Positions 26,991 to 44,411 of a stretch of 64,000 nt of DNA are shown here, in pieces; position 1 is the first letter of the stretch, and each line of letters starts with the position of its first letter. The notes under the pieces were generated by a model. That model saw only the letters and a list, made by a program, of their open reading frames with translations, was not told the origin of the DNA and did no database searches. The stretch is from NCBI RefSeq assembly GCF_058153355.1, contig NZ_CM177019.1; one strand, given 5' to 3'. Position numbers and translations under genes: made by a program.

Positions 26991-27137
26991 TGTTATCCCT
27001 CTGAAGTTCGTTTTTTTACCATTTAGCCATAGTAAAAACATGAATTGTTTGATTTCGCGCATATTCACTCATAATTCGAAAGTGAAACGTGATTTCATGC
27101 GTCATTTTGAACATTCTGTAAATCTTATTTAATAATG

Positions 27138-27153
27138 TGTGCGGCAATTCACA
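27138..27153. promoter_or_regulatory. CRP-like palindrome TGTGC-N6-TCACA in glpA/glpT divergent control region
   Basis: Sequence tgtgcggcaattcaca read in the 195-bp intergenic region. Confidence 0.35.
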
Positions 27154-27263
27154 TTTAATTTCTGAATGTTTTCTTAACATCGCGGCAACTCAAGAAACGG
27201 CAGGTTCTCCCACTGAATCAGGCTGTTAATCATAAATAAGACCACGGGCCACGGAGGCTTTCA

Positions 27264-28622
27264 ATGTTGAGTATTTTTAAACCGGCGCCACACAAAGCGC
27301 GCTTACCTGCCGCGGAGATCGATCCGACTTATCGTCGATTGCGCTGGCAAATTTTCCTGGGGATATTCTTTGGCTATGCTGCTTACTATTTGGTTCGTAA
27401 GAACTTTGCGCTCGCTATGCCTTACCTGGTGGAGCAGGGATTCTCACGCGGTGATTTAGGTTTCGCGCTTTCTGGGATCTCGATCGCCTATGGATTTTCG
27501 AAATTCATCATGGGTTCGGTGTCGGATCGCTCGAATCCGCGCGTTTTCCTCCCTGCAGGTTTGATTCTGGCGGCGGCAGTGATGCTGTTTATGGGCTTTG
27601 TGCCATGGGCGACATCGAGCATTGCGGTAATGTTTGTACTGTTGTTCCTCTGCGGCTGGTTCCAGGGGATGGGGTGGCCGCCGTGTGGTCGTACTATGGT
27701 GCACTGGTGGTCGCAGAAAGAACGTGGCGGCATTGTGTCGGTGTGGAACTGTGCGCACAACGTCGGTGGTGGTATTCCGCCGCTGCTGTTCCTGCTGGGG
27801 ATGGCCTGGTTCAATGACTGGCACGCGGCCCTCTATATGCCCGCTTTCTGCGCCATTCTGGTGGCACTATTCGCCTTTGCGATGATGCGCGATACCCCAC
27901 AATCCTGTGGCTTGCCGCCGATCGAAGAGTACAAAAACGATTATCCGGACGACTATAACGAAAAAGCGGAGCAGGAGCTGACCGCGAAGCAAATTTTCAT
28001 GCAGTACGTGCTGCCGAACAAACTGCTGTGGTACATCGCCATCGCCAACGTGTTCGTTTATCTGCTGCGTTACGGCATCCTCGACTGGTCACCGACCTAC
28101 CTGAAAGAAGTTAAGCATTTCGCGCTGGATAAATCCTCCTGGGCCTACTTCTTCTATGAGTATGCGGGCATTCCGGGCACCCTGTTGTGTGGCTGGATGT
28201 CGGACAAAGTCTTCCGTGGTAACCGTGGGGCAACCGGCGTCTTCTTTATGACACTGGTGACCATCGCAACTATCGTTTACTGGATGAACCCGGCAGGCAA
28301 CCCAACCGTAGATATGATTTGTATGATTGTTATCGGCTTCCTGATCTACGGTCCTGTGATGTTGATTGGTCTGCACGCGCTGGAACTGGCACCGAAAAAA
28401 GCGGCAGGTACGGCAGCGGGCTTTACCGGTCTGTTTGGTTACCTGGGCGGTTCGGTGGCGGCGAGCGCGATTGTTGGTTACACCGTGGACTTCTTCGGCT
28501 GGGATGGCGGCTTTATGGTAATGATTGGCGGCAGCATCCTGGCGGTTATCCTGTTGATAGTTGTGATGATTGGCGAAAAACGTCGCCATCAGGAATTACT
28601 GCAAAAACGCAATGGAGGCTAA
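27264..28622 (+). CDS. glpT: glycerol-3-phosphate transporter GlpT (452 aa)
   Basis: MFS organophosphate:Pi antiporter sequence; synteny. Confidence 0.95.
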
Positions 28623-28626
28623 TGGC

Positions 28627-29703
28627 ATGAAATTGACGCTGAAAAACCTTAGCATGGCGATCATGATGAGTGGAATGATCATGGGAAGCAGTGCAATGGC
28701 GGCGGATAGCAACGAAAAAATAGTCATCGCCCATCGCGGTGCCAGTGGATATTTACCGGAGCATACGCTGCCAGCAAAAGCGATGGCGTATGCGCAGGGG
28801 GCAGATTATCTTGAACAGGATTTGGTGATGACGAAGGATGATCATCTGGTCGTTCTGCATGACCATTATCTCGATCGTGTTACTGATGTCGCCGATCGTT
28901 TCCCGGACAGGGCGCGTAAAGATGGCCGTTACTACGCGATAGATTTTACGCTGGATGAAATTAAGTCGCTGAAATTTACCGAAGGTTTCGATATTGAAAA
29001 CGGTAAAAAAGTGCAGACTTATCCGGGGCGTTTCCCGATGGGTAAGTCTGACTTCCGGGTGCACACCTTTGAAGAAGAGATTGAATTTGTTCAGGGGTTA
29101 AATCACTCCACTGGGAAAAATATTGGTATCTATCCAGAAATTAAAGCGCCGTGGTTCCACCATCAGGAAGGGAAGGATATTGCGGCAAAAACGCTGGAAG
29201 TGCTGAAGAAATATGGTTACCTCGGTAAGGACGACAAAGTTTATTTGCAATGTTTTGATGCTGATGAGCTGAAACGCATTAAAAATGAGCTGGAACCGAA
29301 AATGGGCATGGACCTCAATCTTGTACAGCTGATTGCCTATACCGACTGGAATGAAACGCAGCAGAAACAGCCGGACGGAAGCTGGGTTAATTACAGCTAT
29401 GACTGGATGTTCAAGCCGGGCGCCATGAAACAGGTAGCGGAATATGCTGATGGCATTGGTCCGGATTACCATATGGTGATTGAGGAGACATCGCAGCCGG
29501 GTAATATCAAGCTTACCGGAATGGTAAAAGATGCACAGCAGAATAAGCTGGTGGTGCATCCTTATACCGTGCGGGCCGACAAGCTGCCGGAATATGCCAC
29601 CGATGTGAATCAGTTGTATGATGCTCTGTATAACAAAGCGGGTGTAAATGGGCTGTTTACTGATTTCCCTGATAAGGCAGTAAAATTCCTTAATAAAGAG
29701 TAA
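28627..29703 (+). CDS. glpQ: periplasmic glycerophosphodiester phosphodiesterase GlpQ (358 aa)
   Basis: Track ORF 28570..29703 trimmed to ATG with GGAGG RBS; signal peptide then HRGASGYLPEHT. Confidence 0.9.
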   Translation: MKLTLKNLSMAIMMSGMIMGSSAMAADSNEKIVIAHRGASGYLPEHTLPAKAMAYAQGADYLEQDLVMTKDDHLVVLHDHYLDRVTDVADRFPDRARKDGRYYAIDFTLDEIKSLKFTEGFDIENGKKVQTYPGRFPMGKSDFRVHTFEEEIEFVQGLNHSTGKNIGIYPEIKAPWFHHQEGKDIAAKTLEVLKKYGYLGKDDKVYLQCFDADELKRIKNELEPKMGMDLNLVQLIAYTDWNETQQKQPDGSWVNYSYDWMFKPGAMKQVAEYADGIGPDYHMVIEETSQPGNIKLTGMVKDAQQNKLVVHPYTVRADKLPEYATDVNQLYDALYNKAGVNGLFTDFPDKAVKFLNKE

Positions 29704-29713
29704 TGCTACTGCA

Positions 29714-29735
29714 GGATGGCGTTCATGCGCCATCC
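29714..29735 (+). terminator. hairpin downstream of glpQ
   Basis: Perfect 8-bp stem GGATGGCG / CGCCATCC with 6-nt loop, 10 bp after the glpQ stop; no strong T-run. Confidence 0.4.
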
Positions 29736-29922
29736 TCTGCTAAAGCGAAATAATGCTACTACCGGTTATTCTTTTCATTAACGGGTGCATCCTGTAAAAA
29801 GATGCCAACATAATTTTCGTAAAACTCATTCGTTAAAAAAGCTAACACTGGGCATTGTTATTCTTTAAACAGTATGAATAGGTCTCAATAATAAATTGTA
29901 ATGCAGTTTATACTGTAAAGTA

Positions 29923-30993
29923 TTATTCGAATTTCGGAAAGGTAAAGAAAATATTAATGTATCTTATTAATTTATCATATTGTTCTTGGGTGAATGCTGT
30001 TTGCACACCTTCAGGGCAATATTTACCAGTAATAACCAGTTGCCCATTGCTGTGTTGTACCATTAAACCTTCTTTTTCCTTTGGATCTACAAACTTAGAA
30101 TTATCAAATGTGAAGATATTTTTTTCCTGTTTTGAGTAAGCAAAGAAATCTCGTGTATAGCTGAAACTATCATTTATTAATGGTGCTAACTTTTTGTCGG
30201 CGATATCGATAAGCTCACCACTTAATTTATTGATGTATTTCATTTGCTTCAATTTTTTCTGCGCTTGCACAATTTGCTTGTAGGTGTTTTCAATTTTTTT
30301 AGAAGAATTCTTAAATACATCATAGCGTTCCTCGGAGGATGTGTATTTGTACCATTCTGTATTTTTCTCAGAATGCAGTAGCAGATCTGTATATTCTTTT
30401 TGCTTGCTGTAAAGTTGAGTTCTTATATTTAACTCGTGGATAAATTTATAAATTTTGTCAGAGTTGGTTATTTTTGGTGTGTCTTTGTCTGTCAATGTTT
30501 GGATCTTGTTATTGATATTTTCTTTTGCAACATGCTCATTGATGATGTTAATTGCAGTTTCATATTCATTTAAATTTATTGTTCTTTCTGAAAGAAACCC
30601 TTCTTTGCTTTCGATACTCAAAACACCTTCGTTGTTTTCACCTCGGGTAAAGGTAAGGGTATAGGGTTCATAATCTTCTGCAAATTCATTTTTATACGTT
30701 ATGACATGCTCGACAAAATGTCTTATTGGTACGAAACCATAACTGTGAACGTCAATTTTTTGTGTTTTGATACTATCAATTTCATCTGAGGCTTTCGTGA
30801 AAAAAGCCAATAAATTAGCTATGTTGTCTGCTGAGGTTGATAACCCGAATCTACTTTGAGATATTTTTAGAAACTCATTGCAAAAAATCTCAAGTTTCGC
30901 GGTTTGTTGTGATTCTTTGTAAATTTCTGCTGTTTGCAATTTATTATTTTGTAAAATATTACAGCGAGATAATTGAATAGATGTATTTGGCAT
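29923..30993 (-). CDS. hypothetical protein (356 aa), AT-rich orphan gene in glpQ-inaA islet
   Basis: Long ORF in strongly AT-rich DNA; ATG with AAGGA RBS (MPNTSIQLSR...); Lys/Asn/Glu/Tyr-rich, no TM segments, no motif recognised. Confidence 0.6.
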   Translation of the reverse strand: MPNTSIQLSRCNILQNNKLQTAEIYKESQQTAKLEIFCNEFLKISQSRFGLSTSADNIANLLAFFTKASDEIDSIKTQKIDVHSYGFVPIRHFVEHVITYKNEFAEDYEPYTLTFTRGENNEGVLSIESKEGFLSERTINLNEYETAINIINEHVAKENINNKIQTLTDKDTPKITNSDKIYKFIHELNIRTQLYSKQKEYTDLLLHSEKNTEWYKYTSSEERYDVFKNSSKKIENTYKQIVQAQKKLKQMKYINKLSGELIDIADKKLAPLINDSFSYTRDFFAYSKQEKNIFTFDNSKFVDPKEKEGLMVQHSNGQLVITGKYCPEGVQTAFTQEQYDKLIRYINIFFTFPKFE

Positions 30994-31459
30994 AAATGAT
31001 TCCTTGTATTGTGAGTTAACAAGATACAATTTAATCTTTGCAGAATATATTCACTATCAAATTTAGCTCATTTTATTACGAAGACCTTTACGCATGTTAG
31101 AAAGTATCATTATTGTTAATAAATACGGTAATAAGTAACAAACAGATATTGATAACTTCCCTGACTAGTTATTAGGTATCCCACTTGAAGATTGAGAATG
31201 GCTCCAGAGTAAACTGTGTACTGTTCGCCGGAGTGTCATTACTCTCAACAATCGGTTTTGACAGTGAGTCGGGCGCTTCATACCGGTTTCTACCTGGAGT
31301 CATTGTCACTTCTCCCAACTGAATAAATATATATCGCCAATTCACAAAGTGGGCCAAAATCAGGTGAAAACGAATTATTACGCCTGGTAAAGACTATAGT
31401 ACAACTAAGTGTGGCGAATCAGGCAGTCTTGCATTTGTCATCAATCTCATGTCTTACAT

Positions 31460-31700
31460 CAAATTTTTCCACTCACCACGAGTTGTTCCGTACACGTTTG
31501 TAGTACAAACAGTGGACTGCCTTCTACCGGCTTTTCTTTAGCCAGCAACGAAATCTGTCGATAGAAGGTTGGTTCGAGAGGAACGGAACACAATTCACCT
31601 GCAATGGTTTTCAGCGTTAACTCTGGTAATAAGGCGATGCCTAATCCCTGTCGAATAAAACTGATCGCTGTATCCGGGTGATTAAATTCATATTTTATTT
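31460..31700 (-). pseudogene. LysR-family regulator C-terminal remnant (yfaH-like)
   Basis: Minus-strand translation gives ...GIALLPELTLKTIAGELCSVPLEPTFYRQISLLAKEKPVEGSPLFVLQ... with no N-terminal HTH domain or start codon. Confidence 0.45.
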
Positions 31701-31880
31701 GCTGGGTGCACTATTAGTGGTAGTGGCTGGTGGAGTCTATGCGCTGCAAATGAAGGGCAAAAGCGGTGTCGCGCTAGTAGTGGCAAAAGAAATTCATTAA
31801 TACGACACGTTTCATTAAGATTTTTCGCAGGTAACCACCTATAGTCATTGTCGTTAATAAAAAATGACAGGCGATAGGGT

Positions 31881-32531
31881 ATGGCAGTTTCAGCAAAGTA
31901 CGATGAATTTAATCACTGGTGGGCAACAGAGGGCGACTGGGTTGAAGAGCCTAACTATCGCCGTAATGGGATGAGCGGGGTGCAATGCGTCGAGCGCAAT
32001 GGCAAAAAGCTGTATGTGAAGCGCATGACGCATCATCTGTTTCATTCCGTACGTTATCCGTTCGGTCGACCGACGATTGTCCGTGAGGTTGCGGTAATTA
32101 AAGAACTGGAACGGGCTGGTGTCATTGTGCCGAAAATCGTTTTTGGTGAAGCGGTGAAAATTGAGGGTGAATGGCGCGCGTTGCTGGTGACGGAAGATAT
32201 GGCGGGGTTCATAAGTATTGCTGACTGGTATGCCCAGCATGCAGTAACACCTTATTCTGACGATGTTCGGCAAGCCATGTTGAAAGCTGTGGCGATGGCG
32301 TTTAAGAAAATGCATAGCGTTAATCGTCAGCATGGCTGTTGTTACGTTCGCCACATCTATGTGAAAACAGAAGGTATGGTAGAAGCTGGTTTTCTTGATC
32401 TGGAGAAAAGTCGTCGCCGCTTACGTCGGCATAAAGCGATTAATCATGATTTCCGCCAGCTGGAAAAATATCTGGAGCCGATCCCTAAAGCGGACTGGGA
32501 GCAGGTTAAAGCGTATTACTACGCCATGTAA
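31881..32531 (+). CDS. inaA: lipopolysaccharide-kinase-family protein InaA (216 aa)
   Basis: Sequence recognised; synteny next to yfaE. Confidence 0.8.
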   Translation: MAVSAKYDEFNHWWATEGDWVEEPNYRRNGMSGVQCVERNGKKLYVKRMTHHLFHSVRYPFGRPTIVREVAVIKELERAGVIVPKIVFGEAVKIEGEWRALLVTEDMAGFISIADWYAQHAVTPYSDDVRQAMLKAVAMAFKKMHSVNRQHGCCYVRHIYVKTEGMVEAGFLDLEKSRRRLRRHKAINHDFRQLEKYLEPIPKADWEQVKAYYYAM

Positions 32532-32583
32532 TCACGTAGGCCAGATAAGACGCGTAAGCGTCGCATCTGGCACAAGTACCCGA

Positions 32584-32838
32584 TCACATCTCGATTTCAA
32601 TATCGCCTTTTGCCCGGCAACAACAGGGCAAAATTTCCCCCGGCTGAATAAAGGCTAACGGTTCGGCAATCCAGTCCACCTGGCCTGCAACAAGGCGTGT
32701 GCGACAAGAACCGCAGTAACCTTCGCGGCACTGGTACTCAACCGCCACATTGTGGGATTCCAGCGCCGCCAGAAGGGAAGGGTGTTCATCCTGGCACAGC
32801 AGTTGTGTGCCAGTGATGCGCAGGGTAACGCGAGCCAT
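32584..32838 (-). CDS. yfaE: 2Fe-2S ferredoxin YfaE (84 aa)
   Basis: CxxxxCxxC...C cluster ligands; immediately downstream of nrdB. Confidence 0.85.
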   Translation of the reverse strand: MARVTLRITGTQLLCQDEHPSLLAALESHNVAVEYQCREGYCGSCRTRLVAGQVDWIAEPLAFIQPGEILPCCCRAKGDIEIEM

Positions 32839-33968
32839 CAGAGCTGGAAGTTACTCAAATCGTCGGTGTCCACTTCCGAGTCAATCTGCCCGACCAGATA
32901 AGAACTGACTTCCACTTCCTGCGGAGCAACCTGTACGTTATCCGATACCAACCAGGTGTTGATCCACGGGATCGGGTTGGAGCGTGTCTGGAACGGCAGA
33001 TCCAAACCGACTGCCTGCATACGGATATTGGTGATGTATTCAACGTACTGGCAGAGAATGTCTTTATTCAGGCCAATCATCGAACCGTCACGGAACAGAT
33101 AATCCGCCCAGTCTTTCTCTTGCTGTGCCGCCTGAACAAACAGGTCATAGCACTCCTGCTTACACTCTTCGGCAATTTCTGCCATTTCCGGATCATCCGC
33201 GCCGCTGCGCAGCAGATTCAGCATATGCTGCGTACCGGTCAGGTGCAGGGCTTCATCGCGGGCAATCAGACGAATAATTTTGGCGTTACCTTCCATCAGT
33301 TCGCGTTCTGCAAAGGCAAAGGAACAAGCAAAGCTGACGTAGAAGCGGATCGCTTCCAGCGCGTTAACGCTCATCAGGCAGAGATACAGTTTTTTCTTCA
33401 GCTCGCGCAGGCTAACGGTTACGGTTTTACCGTTAACGGTGTGGGTACCTTCGCCCAGCAGATGCCAGTAGCTGGTCATTTCGATCAGCTCATCGTAATA
33501 GCTGGAGATCCCTTCCGCACGTTTCTGGATCTGCTCGTTGGTGACGATATCATCAAACACAACGGACGGATCGTTAACGATATTACGAATGATATGAGTA
33601 TAGGAACGGGAATGAATTGTTTCTGAGAATGCCCAGGTTTCTACCCAGGTCTCCAGTTCCGGGATCGAGATCAGCGGCAGCAGTGCCACGTTCGGGCTGC
33701 GACCCTGAATGGAGTCCAGCAGCGTCTGATATTTCAGGTTGCTGATAAAGATGTGTTTTTCGTGTTCAGGCAGTGCCTGGTAATCGATACGGTCACGAGA
33801 AACGTCAACTTCTTCCGGACGCCAGAAGAAAGAGAGCTGCTTTTCGATCAGCTTTTCGAAGATGTCATATTTTTGCTGATCGTAGCGAGCCACGTTGACC
33901 GGCTGACCAAAGAACATCGGTTCTTTCAGCTGATCATTTTTCGTCTGAGAAAAGGTGGTATATGCCAT
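32838..33968 (-). CDS. nrdB: class Ia ribonucleotide reductase beta subunit NrdB (376 aa)
   Basis: Track ORF 32838..34019 trimmed to [17 protein letters not shown]... Confidence 0.95.
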
Positions 33969-33993
33969 GAATGTGTCCTGTTGGGAGTTTAAT

Positions 33994-34105
33994 GCCGGAT
34001 AAGGCATTTTACGCCGCATCCTGTGCCTGATGCGACGCTGGCGCGTCTTATCAGGCCTACAAACCGAGCCGTAGGCCGGATAAGGCGTTCACGCCGCATC
34101 CGGCA
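33994..34105. repeat. REP/BIME cluster (three REP units) in nrdA-nrdB intergenic region
   Basis: gcctgatgcgacgctggcgcgtcttatcaggcctac and flanking gccggataaggcg...cgccgcatcc units. Confidence 0.7.
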
Positions 34106-41783: not shown

Positions 41784-44411
41784 ATGAGCGACCTTGCGAG
41801 AGAAATTACACCGGTCAACATTGAGGAAGAGCTGAAGAGCTCCTATCTGGATTATGCGATGTCGGTCATTGTTGGCCGTGCGCTGCCGGATGTCCGAGAT
41901 GGCCTGAAGCCGGTACACCGTCGCGTACTTTACGCCATGAACGTACTAGGCAATGACTGGAACAAAGCCTATAAAAAATCTGCCCGTGTCGTTGGTGACG
42001 TAATCGGTAAATACCATCCCCATGGTGACTCGGCGGTTTATGACACGATCGTCCGTATGGCGCAGCCATTCTCGCTGCGTTACATGCTGGTAGACGGTCA
42101 GGGTAACTTCGGTTCCATCGACGGCGACTCTGCGGCGGCAATGCGTTATACGGAAATCCGTCTGGCGAAAATTGCCCATGAACTGATGGCCGATCTCGAA
42201 AAAGAGACGGTCGATTTCGTTGATAACTATGACGGCACGGAAAAAATTCCGGACGTCATGCCAACCAAAATTCCTAACCTGCTGGTGAACGGTTCTTCCG
42301 GTATCGCCGTAGGTATGGCAACCAACATCCCGCCGCACAACCTGACGGAAGTCATCAACGGTTGTCTGGCGTATATCGATGATGAAGACATCAGCATTGA
42401 AGGGCTGATGGAACACATCCCGGGGCCAGACTTCCCGACGGCGGCAATCATCAACGGTCGTCGCGGTATCGAAGAAGCTTACCGTACCGGTCGCGGCAAG
42501 GTATATATCCGCGCCCGTGCTGAAGTGGAAGTTGACGCCAAAACCGGACGTGAAACCATTATCGTCCACGAAATTCCGTATCAGGTGAACAAAGCGCGCC
42601 TGATCGAGAAGATTGCGGAACTGGTAAAAGAAAAACGCGTGGAAGGCATCAGCGCGCTGCGTGACGAGTCTGACAAAGACGGTATGCGCATCGTGATTGA
42701 AGTGAAACGCGATGCGGTCGGTGAAGTGGTGCTCAACAACCTCTACTCCCAGACCCAGTTGCAGGTTTCTTTCGGTATCAACATGGTGGCATTGCACCAT
42801 GGTCAGCCGAAGATCATGAACCTGAAAGACATCATCGCTGCGTTTGTTCGTCACCGCCGTGAAGTGGTGACCCGTCGTACCATTTTCGAACTGCGTAAAG
42901 CTCGCGATCGTGCTCATATCCTTGAAGCATTAGCCGTGGCGCTGGCGAACATCGACCCGATCATCGAACTGATCCGTCATGCGCCGACGCCTGCAGAAGC
43001 GAAAACGGCGCTGGTTGCTAATCCGTGGCAGTTGGGCAACGTTGCCGCGATGCTGGAACGTGCGGGCGATGATGCTGCGCGTCCGGAATGGCTGGAGCCA
43101 GAGTTCGGTGTGCGTGACGGTCTGTACTACCTGACCGAACAGCAAGCTCAGGCGATTCTGGATCTGCGTCTGCAGAAACTGACCGGCCTTGAGCACGAAA
43201 AACTGCTCGATGAATACAAAGAGCTGCTGGATCAGATCGCGGAACTGTTGCGTATTCTTGGTAGCGCCGATCGTCTGATGGAAGTGATCCGCGAAGAGCT
43301 GGAGCTGGTTCGTGAACAGTTCGGTGACAAACGTCGTACTGAAATCACCGCCAACAGCGCAGACATCAACCTGGAAGATTTGATTACTCAGGAAGATGTG
43401 GTAGTGACGCTCTCTCACCAGGGCTACGTGAAGTACCAGCCGCTTTCTGAATACGAAGCGCAGCGTCGTGGCGGGAAAGGTAAATCTGCCGCACGTATTA
43501 AAGAAGAAGACTTTATCGACCGACTGCTGGTGGCGAACACCCACGACCATATTCTGTGCTTCTCCAGCCGTGGTCGCGTCTATTCGATGAAAGTTTACCA
43601 GTTGCCGGAAGCCACTCGTGGCGCGCGCGGTCGTCCGATCGTCAACCTGCTGCCGCTGGAGCAGGACGAACGTATCACTGCGATCCTGCCGGTGACCGAG
43701 TTTGAAGAAGGCGTGAAAGTCTTCATGGCGACCGCTAACGGTACCGTGAAGAAAACTGTCCTCACCGAGTTCAACCGTCTGCGTACCGCCGGTAAAGTGG
43801 CGATCAAACTGGTTGACGGCGATGAGCTGATCGGCGTTGACCTGACCAGCGGTGAAGACGAAGTAATGCTGTTCTCCGCCGAAGGTAAAGTGGTGCGCTT
43901 TAAAGAGTCTTCTGTCCGTGCGATGGGCTGCAACACCACCGGTGTTCGCGGTATTCGCTTAGGTGAAGGCGATAAAGTCGTCTCTCTGATCGTGCCTCGT
44001 GGCGATGGTGCAATCCTCACCGCAACGCAAAACGGTTACGGTAAACGTACTGCGGTAGCGGAATACCCGACTAAGTCGCGTGCGACGAAAGGGGTTATCT
44101 CCATCAAGGTTACCGAACGTAACGGTTTAGTGGTTGGCGCGGTGCAGGTAGATGACTGCGACCAGATCATGATGATCACCGATGCCGGTACGCTGGTACG
44201 TACTCGCGTTTCTGAAATCAGCATCGTGGGCCGTAACACCCAGGGCGTGATCCTTATCCGTACTGCGGAAGATGAAAACGTGGTGGGTCTGCAACGTGTT
44301 GCTGAACCGGTTGACGAGGAAGATCTGGATACCATCGACGGCAGTGCTGCGGAAGGGGACGATGAAATCGCTCCGGAAGTGGACGTTGACGACGAGCCAG
44401 AAGAAGAATAA
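41784..44411 (+). CDS. gyrA: DNA gyrase subunit A (875 aa)
   Basis: Unmistakable GyrA sequence including the AAMRYTEIR active-site tyrosine region and acidic C-terminal tail. Confidence 0.97.

Follow-up and report, generated by a model that had tools for sequence, protein, structure and literature searches.

An AT-rich islet of the Escherichia coli lineage beside glpQ carries a weakly constrained orphan gene with a possible conflict-type role

Background

The AT-rich, fast-evolving ORFans of Escherichia coli reportedly derive from phages, a view ascribed to Daubin and Ochman (2004). Such genes are rich in AT, restricted to one lineage, patchily distributed and without homologues, and their ratio of nonsynonymous to synonymous divergence (dN/dS) is elevated. 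All these properties are shared by the gene described here, an orphan of 356 codons that occupies an AT-rich islet between glpQ and the LysR-type gene yfaH. It was analyzed in a stretch of 64,000 nucleotides of contig NZ_CM177019.1 (RefSeq assembly GCF_058153355.1), which is called the window in this paper and to which all positions refer. The gene departs from the described ORFans in its length (356 amino acids is longer than typical), in having no prophage context and in having no homologue in INPHARED, IMG/VR or PHROGs.

The second group of systems that invites comparison consists of the single-gene anti-phage and abortive infection (Abi) proteins (PD-T4/PD-lambda, Abi). Like the orphan, they stand alone, are AT-rich, variably present and fast evolving, and have constrained modules flanking a variable segment. 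In contrast to them, the orphan has no PADLOC match, is not in a defence island and is found at one fixed site. DUF4140-domain proteins and the alpha-beta-beta-beta-alpha domains of COMM and SRP9/14 also belong to the nearest comparisons.

The gene itself is already on record. Its family is that of ECs_3123 (NP_311150.1 / WP_001301786.1) of O157:H7 Sakai, which is annotated as 'hypothetical protein', and includes UniProt entry B7N5K2 (strain UMN026). ECs_3123 lies at the same locus (glpQ / gene / yfaH) and is 85-87% identical to the window gene in protein and 93% in DNA sequence, but it differs by a compensated frameshift, by a different central haplotype and by its surroundings: the LysR gene and the adjacent gene for a major facilitator superfamily (MFS) transporter are intact in O157 and deleted in the window. 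No function is recorded for any family member in public annotation, and we found no paper mentioning a gene of the ECs_3123 family. Thus, the gene is a catalogued hypothetical protein in an ordinary ORFan islet. The LysR-MFS pair next to it has been described as 'O-island 97' (OI-97), a laterally acquired segment (PMC10819331). OI-97 adjoins the orphan islet between glpQ and inaA and is likewise a difference between O157 and K-12.

Results

Alignment with K-12 defines the extra DNA of the window as positions 29737..31450 (1714 bp, approximately 31% GC). The K-12 sequence can be followed as far as 29736, where the glpQ terminator hairpin (AGGATGGCG-TTCATG-CGCCATCCT, + strand, 29713..29736) ends, and the alignment resumes at about 31447-31451, by the LysR stop codon. 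The stop codon of glpQ occupies 29701-29703, and inaA 31881-32531. In K-12 and E. albertii the same hairpin is followed directly by the LysR stop codon. An earlier note, made from the letters of the window, had singled out an AT-rich block in contrast to its flanks and had proposed a comparison of GC content and codon usage. The contrast was found on both counts: GC content is 0.29-0.33 over 29750-31250 as compared with 0.44-0.58 in glpT/glpQ and inaA/nrdB, and the orphan open reading frame (ORF) has a GC content of 0.317 and a third-position GC content (GC3) of 0.303, whereas the GC3 values of glpT, glpQ, inaA, yfaE and nrdB are 0.49-0.65. The block had been placed between the glpQ hairpin and inaA. 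The hairpin is indeed one edge, but the other edge does not abut inaA, remnants of the LysR and MFS genes lying in between.

In E. albertii, Salmonella and Citrobacter the LysR gene and glpQ converge across a spacer of 43-116 bp that lacks the orphan gene; in E. albertii the hairpin and LysR stop region of this spacer have the K-12 form. Since the orphan DNA is absent from the outgroups, the islet was inserted in the E. coli lineage, and because the E. albertii junction matches that of K-12, the K-12 junction represents the ancestral, never-occupied site. The possibility that K-12 lost the gene by deletion was rejected on the same observation. These comparisons place the arrival of the islet after the divergence of E. 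coli and E. albertii. Both junctions were identical in 11 of the 11 carrier loci aligned, which is consistent with a single insertion event. Taking together its foreign composition and its absence from the syntenic site in the three outgroup genera, the islet is horizontally acquired accessory DNA, as the earlier note had supposed.

The ends of the islet have no terminal inverted repeats and no target-site duplication, and the islet contains no transposase or other mobility gene. A transposable element or miniature inverted-repeat transposable element was therefore rejected, the more so as there is approximately one copy per genome. An integron cassette was likewise rejected as an explanation of the hairpin found inside the islet, since this hairpin is set back 135 nt from the right end and the junction does not conform to GTTRRRY. 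Some sequence echoes were seen at the ends. The sequence TAATGCTACT overlaps the glpQ stop codon (29701-29715), and 13 of its 15 positions are repeated 50 nt further on, at 29751-29765, inside the left end of the islet; the right end resembles the right flank in a similar but weaker way (TGTC..ATCAA). Such echoes may have been left by the insertion event or may have arisen by chance.

The orphan gene is on the minus strand at 29923..30993, with its ATG at 30993 and, as read from the sequence, a Shine-Dalgarno (SD) motif AAGGA (31001..31005, minus strand) 7 nt upstream of it; the frame, the ribosome binding site and the hydrophilic composition of the product are as first described. At this base composition the chance of an open frame of 356 codons is approximately 2e-13. 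Alleles sampled over the identity range were all intact (11/11), each having exactly 356 codons. Among at least 128 substitutions there was no nonsense change, whereas 5.6 would be expected neutrally (P=0.004; 10 alleles in the common frame, the expectation using the observed mix of transitions and transversions). The dN/dS ratio of the whole gene is 0.44-0.69, and it is lower in two parts, namely codons 76-160 (0.19-0.27) and codons 256-356 (0.15-0.46). In codons 161-255 both classes of site are very diverged (dS 0.32-0.37, dN about 0.15). These values argue that the gene is a true coding sequence that evolves under weak purifying selection. Its dS (0.13-0.14) is comparable to that of the flanking core genes (0.07-0.36, apart from one low value for yfaE), so the islet is about as old as the divergence of the flanks. 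Its dN is 0.062 as compared with at most 0.017 in the flanking genes; the orphan protein evolves several-fold faster than its neighbours.

The O157 allele contains a compensated -1/+1 frameshift extending over approximately 12 codons (alignment columns 592 and 627, corresponding to 30360-30400 of the window). Most alleles are flagged as a 'frameshifted' pseudogene by the Prokaryotic Genome Annotation Pipeline (PGAP), yet the alleles other than that of O157, including that of the window, are intact in a common frame. As the O157 allele is the aberrant one, the flag on the others is best read as an artefact of the reference.

Searches for homologues in databases derived from approximately 15 billion proteins agreed with the earlier statement that the product has no recognizable motif, and revealed no housekeeping homologue. 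There was no match in Pfam-A even at E<=10 and none in NCBIfam; the best matches in PHROGs and among PDB sequences had E=0.12 and E=0.24, respectively. An indexed search of 5.8 billion clusters returned just Escherichia-labelled homologues of at least 83% identity, and an exhaustive HMMER pass over 1.84 billion representatives just the same family and its fragments. Apparent distant matches (P0025, P0031, P0034, P0023 and P0068) turned out to be frameshifted or chimeric copies of the orphan gene. These results point to a true taxonomically restricted gene without an identifiable donor.

Among 5426 complete E. coli genomes the gene was found in 1052 (about 19%), in all cases on the chromosome, and the ancestral empty junction in 3159. 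The variable presence that had been anticipated for the glpQ-inaA interval was thus observed, but the gene is not strain-specific, as had been suggested; it is an old, widespread series of alleles whose carriers include O157:H7 (ECs_3123), enteroaggregative E. coli (EAEC) 042, avian pathogenic E. coli (APEC) O78 and enterotoxigenic (ETEC) strains. The median number of places per genome is one and the maximum two (three genomes have two), and all of the 11 loci examined are at the glpQ-yfaH site. As most strains do without the gene and IS1 has disrupted it in some, it is dispensable. Protein and DNA searches found no copy in 50,697 phage records, 72,556 plasmid records and IMG/VR; a lone 'plasmid' match was a 4.9-Mb chromosome. 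A scan of the species representatives of GTDB, with patterns taken from the weakly constrained N-terminus and hence of limited sensitivity, found a single locus, on contig JAIJJM010000334.1 of a metagenome-assembled genome (MAG) labelled 'Collinsella sp.'. This contig is 3.5 kb long and 94% identical to the E. coli islet, and is almost certainly a binning contamination and not a true occurrence outside Escherichia.

The islet region of the window was matched at 99% identity or more by just 13 of the 5426 genomes. The glpT-nrdB segment around it (27000-34100) is 93-96% identical to K-12, with a glpQ dS of about 0.33, and gyrA (41784-44411) is up to 98.9-99.2% identical to that of ordinary E. 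coli genomes. The glp-nrd region of the strain is thus probably a locally divergent segment brought in by recombination.

The encoded protein (41.7 kDa, isoelectric point (pI) 6.4) is hydrophilic, with a grand average of hydropathy (GRAVY) of -0.65. Lacking both a transmembrane segment and a signal peptide, it is predicted to be a soluble cytoplasmic protein. Its least conserved part is a basic central segment (approximately codons 140-240, 30277..30576, minus strand, pI 9.5), which covers a partly disordered linker and the start of long helices. Here the nucleotide sequence of the window allele departs from that of the common alleles by 11-22%, as compared with 0-8% in the rest of the islet. 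Among 26 full-length proteins there are 18 distinct central segments with identities of 63-80%, whereas the other parts are at least 87% identical. It is flanked by the two parts of low dN/dS. Module 1 (codons 76-160, 30514..30768, minus strand) is predicted to form a helix, a three-stranded beta meander and a second helix and contains the invariant H92-F-V-E-H96; module 2 (codons 256-356, 29926..30228, minus strand) would consist of a helix, a beta hairpin and a C-terminal helix in a low-confidence AlphaFold2 (AF2) model. The overall order predicted by AF2 is N-terminal helices, a helix-meander-helix unit (approximately 90-160), a linker (157-176), long helices (178-290, the basic region of pI 9.5), a beta hairpin and a terminal helix. 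The unit at approximately 90-160 is among the better regions of both AF2 models, the confidence score (pLDDT) reaching 69 per 10-residue block.

Fold searches with the AF2 models gave nothing significant. Two residue patterns on the low-confidence model were looked at as leads. The invariant H92-x-x-E-H96, in a predicted helix, has the HxxEH form of the M16 inverted zincins, but Pfam gave no Peptidase_M16 signal and the fold matches included no peptidase. The pattern E95/D107/E128-x-K130 on the alpha/beta unit may be compared with the residues of PD-(D/E)xK nucleases. Neither lead was backed by profile or fold searches. An internal duplication of two beta-hairpin-plus-helix modules was rejected (hhalign E=0.21).

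The 457 bp between the gene and the right edge of the islet at the LysR stop codon are not uniformly conserved. They include an element at 31172..31313 (minus strand), recognized by its conservation, which comprises a 43-codon ORF (31303..31172, MTPGRNRYEAPDSLSKPIVESNDTPANSTQFTLEPFSIFKWDT, with a GGGAG SD motif) and an imperfect hairpin of about 125 nt (31187-31313). Only 2 of the 120 columns at 31191-31310 are variable, as compared with approximately 9% in the rest of the islet. Identity over the block is 95-99% in most carriers and exceeds that of the ORF (90-95%); the block is more conserved than both the orphan gene and the flanking core genes. The 43-codon peptide is identical in 10 of 11 alleles, but synonymous positions are invariant too, so that the constraint may be on the peptide or on the RNA or DNA. 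The hairpin has a z score of -2.7 on the plus strand (1/200 shuffles as stable) and -1.6 on the minus strand, and a search of Rfam found no family in 29000-32500 at E<=1. The element occurs just with the gene (1054 and 1052 genomes, respectively), and it is unannotated in the genomes looked at. Frameshifted versions of the peptide exist. In E. coli 042 a further deletion has removed the element and the C-terminus of the LysR protein; there the MFS gene has an internal stop and the 356-codon ORF is intact.

Outside the islet, at 31459-31707 on the minus strand, the window carries the 3' remnant of yfaH, the LysR gene, and on the plus strand (approximately 31690-31800) a fragment of the MFS transporter gene, both as judged from the PGAP annotation of a strain almost identical to that of the window. 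Alignment to O157 showed that the two remnants were fused by an 1865-bp deletion, with an overlap of 14 nt at the junction, and this deletion is common to K-12 and the window. The short pseudogene that the earlier note had expected in the K-12 interval is present (yfaH), but it derives from the LysR gene and not from the orphan. O157:H7 has both genes intact, in the order glpQ / orphan / LysR / MFS / inaA. The LysR-MFS pair also occupies this position in E. albertii, Salmonella and Citrobacter, and LysR orthologues are 90% (E. albertii), 81% (Salmonella) and 76-79% (Citrobacter) identical, others being found as well. Since the pair is present at the same site in three outgroup genera, it is ancestral and was not acquired laterally. 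OI-97 is therefore an indel separate from the orphan islet: in the former, ancestral DNA was deleted in K-12 and the window, whereas the latter is a true insertion. According to the primer sequence, the published delta-OI-97 deletion goes no further than the LysR stop codon and spares the orphan islet (PMC10819331); the phenotype of that mutant is thus uninformative on the orphan gene.

The intact LysR-MFS pair was found in 1216 of the 5426 complete genomes, and all four combinations of orphan (present or absent) and LysR-MFS pair (intact or deleted) were seen. Recombination or recurrent events must therefore have shuffled two polymorphisms that are approximately 0.5 kb apart. In some E. coli there is a fifth state of the locus, a glpQ-inaA spacer of 202 bp with a different terminator hairpin and neither the islet nor the LysR/MFS remnant. 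The gene inaA is absent here from the E. albertii, Salmonella and Citrobacter loci, in which yfaE is followed by the MFS gene (with a gap of 217 bp in E. albertii). The difference may be due to an insertion of inaA at this site in the E. coli lineage or to its loss from the other genera.

Discussion

The explanation that we favour is that of an islet of the E. coli lineage with a weakly constrained orphan gene whose product has a conflict-type role. Taken as a whole it is, in our judgement, evenly poised between right and wrong. Its DNA probably came from an unsampled phage-like source. The role proposed is that of a conditionally useful stand-alone conflict protein, acting for instance in phage exclusion or abortive infection or as a toxin-like protein. 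Judged on its own this role is rather unlikely; it was ranked first because the gene is AT-rich, patchy and fast evolving and has constrained modules around a variable segment. Patchiness, AT-richness, fast evolution and the variable segment are consistent with a conflict role but are not specific to conflict. In such a protein the conserved modules would carry the activity and the hypervariable middle would set partner specificity. The upstream hairpin and small ORF would control expression, which is proposed because the sense-strand hairpin pairs with the SD motif and AUG of the small ORF. It is doubtful whether one may go further and regard the protein as the founder of an unrecognized stand-alone conflict family with a fold absent from the databases, its basic middle providing specificity and its expression being gated by the hairpin and the 43-codon ORF.

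Several observations weigh against the favoured explanation. The neighbours (glpTQ, LysR/MFS, inaA and nrdAB) are housekeeping genes, with no defence island or mobile element among them, and none of the 5027 models of PADLOC-DB 2.0.0 gave a family at E<=1. Unlike most defence genes, the orphan has a single fixed chromosomal site and was never found on phages, plasmids or IMG/VR contigs. A scan of the minus strand upstream of the gene revealed no sigma-70-like promoter, and no intrinsic terminator was found. Codons 1-75 evolve about neutrally, with 7-10 nonsynonymous and 0-2 synonymous changes. The AF2 models are poor (pLDDT 46 with a shallow family alignment, and 48), which makes the domain architecture tentative. 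The hypervariable stretch overlaps in part with the predicted disordered linker (AF2 low confidence, 157-176); this overlap and the dS of about 0.35 suggest that the central variability may reflect low constraint and old or imported haplotypes instead of diversifying selection. The earlier suggestion of a single-gene defence or toxin function thus found no support in any test, all membership tests for known defence systems having failed, and we hold it as a tentative and somewhat improbable idea.

The foremost alternative is that the gene is a functionless passenger, an old imported ORFan that drifts under very weak constraint and is lost piecemeal. The gene is absent from 81% of the genomes, of 40 evenly sampled carriers, 9 have an IS1 (IS1A) insertion in it (hits H47-H55; e.g. 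strain p10A), and truncated forms are common in the protein clusters. The overall dN/dS and the nearly neutral N-terminal codons fit a passenger as well, as do the 12-codon compensated frameshift tolerated by the O157 allele and the lack of homologues and of a confident fold. In contrast, drift does not readily account for the deficit of nonsense changes (see above), for the retention of all 356 codons by every sampled allele in DNA of 31% GC, or for two modules with dN/dS of 0.15-0.3 in a gene that persists over alleles with dS of about 0.14. On balance we consider a pure passenger unlikely.

The presence of the gene in O157:H7 raises the question whether it encodes a substrate of type III secretion or a virulence accessory protein of pathogenic E. 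coli. Judged by composition alone, the N-terminus has no acidic residue among the first 22 and is rich in S, T, N, Q and I. However, this N-terminal region is the part that evolves neutrally, and the gene resides in a chromosomal housekeeping context, not in a prophage or an effector locus. It is also present in APEC, ETEC and EAEC 042 strains and in the window strain; APEC, ETEC and other carrier strains presumably have no locus of enterocyte effacement (LEE). A secretion substrate is therefore quite improbable.

If the orphan and the upstream ORF formed a toxin-antitoxin-like pair, the 43-aa peptide would neutralize or regulate the 356-aa protein. The small ORF has a good SD motif and the same orientation, its peptide is nearly invariant and strictly co-occurs with the large ORF, and the pairing of the sense-strand hairpin with its SD motif and AUG would suit regulation. 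On the other hand, the two ORFs are separated by 178 nt, which is atypical of type II modules, and neither protein matches a toxin-antitoxin family. The small ORF has no synonymous variation, so its constraint may be at the nucleotide or RNA level, and frameshifted variants of the peptide exist. E. coli 042, which lacks the element and has kept an intact large ORF, is hard to square with an essential antitoxin. Taking these points together, such a pair is very improbable.

Little likelihood is left, too, for the idea that the orphan is cargo of the LysR-MFS module. It directly follows the LysR gene on the same strand, at a distance of 466 bp. Yet all four combinations of the two exist, the module is ancestral in Enterobacteriaceae where the orphan is absent, and the window combines the orphan with a deletion in the LysR gene. 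The slimmest chance goes to the view that the upstream structured element (a small RNA or a cis-regulatory hairpin, perhaps on the plus strand) is the selected unit and the large ORF secondary: the exceptional conservation of 31191-31310 and the stability of its plus-strand fold speak for it, but there is no Rfam match, too little variation for a covariation test and a deletion of the element in E. coli 042, and maintenance of the ORF would still need explaining.

Conclusions

As things stand, specialists will not be surprised by the locus, a gene present in O157:H7 and other pathogens. The analysis corrects the record in three respects: the pseudogene flag of PGAP on most alleles is best regarded as an artefact, the K-12 junction is the ancestral state, and the O-island 97 pair is ancestral too. 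The gene offers a clean test case, being the single gene of a well-delimited islet confined to E. coli, with a natural empty site in K-12. If a phenotype such as phage resistance, toxicity or secretion were found, the orphan would represent a new protein family and a new fold.

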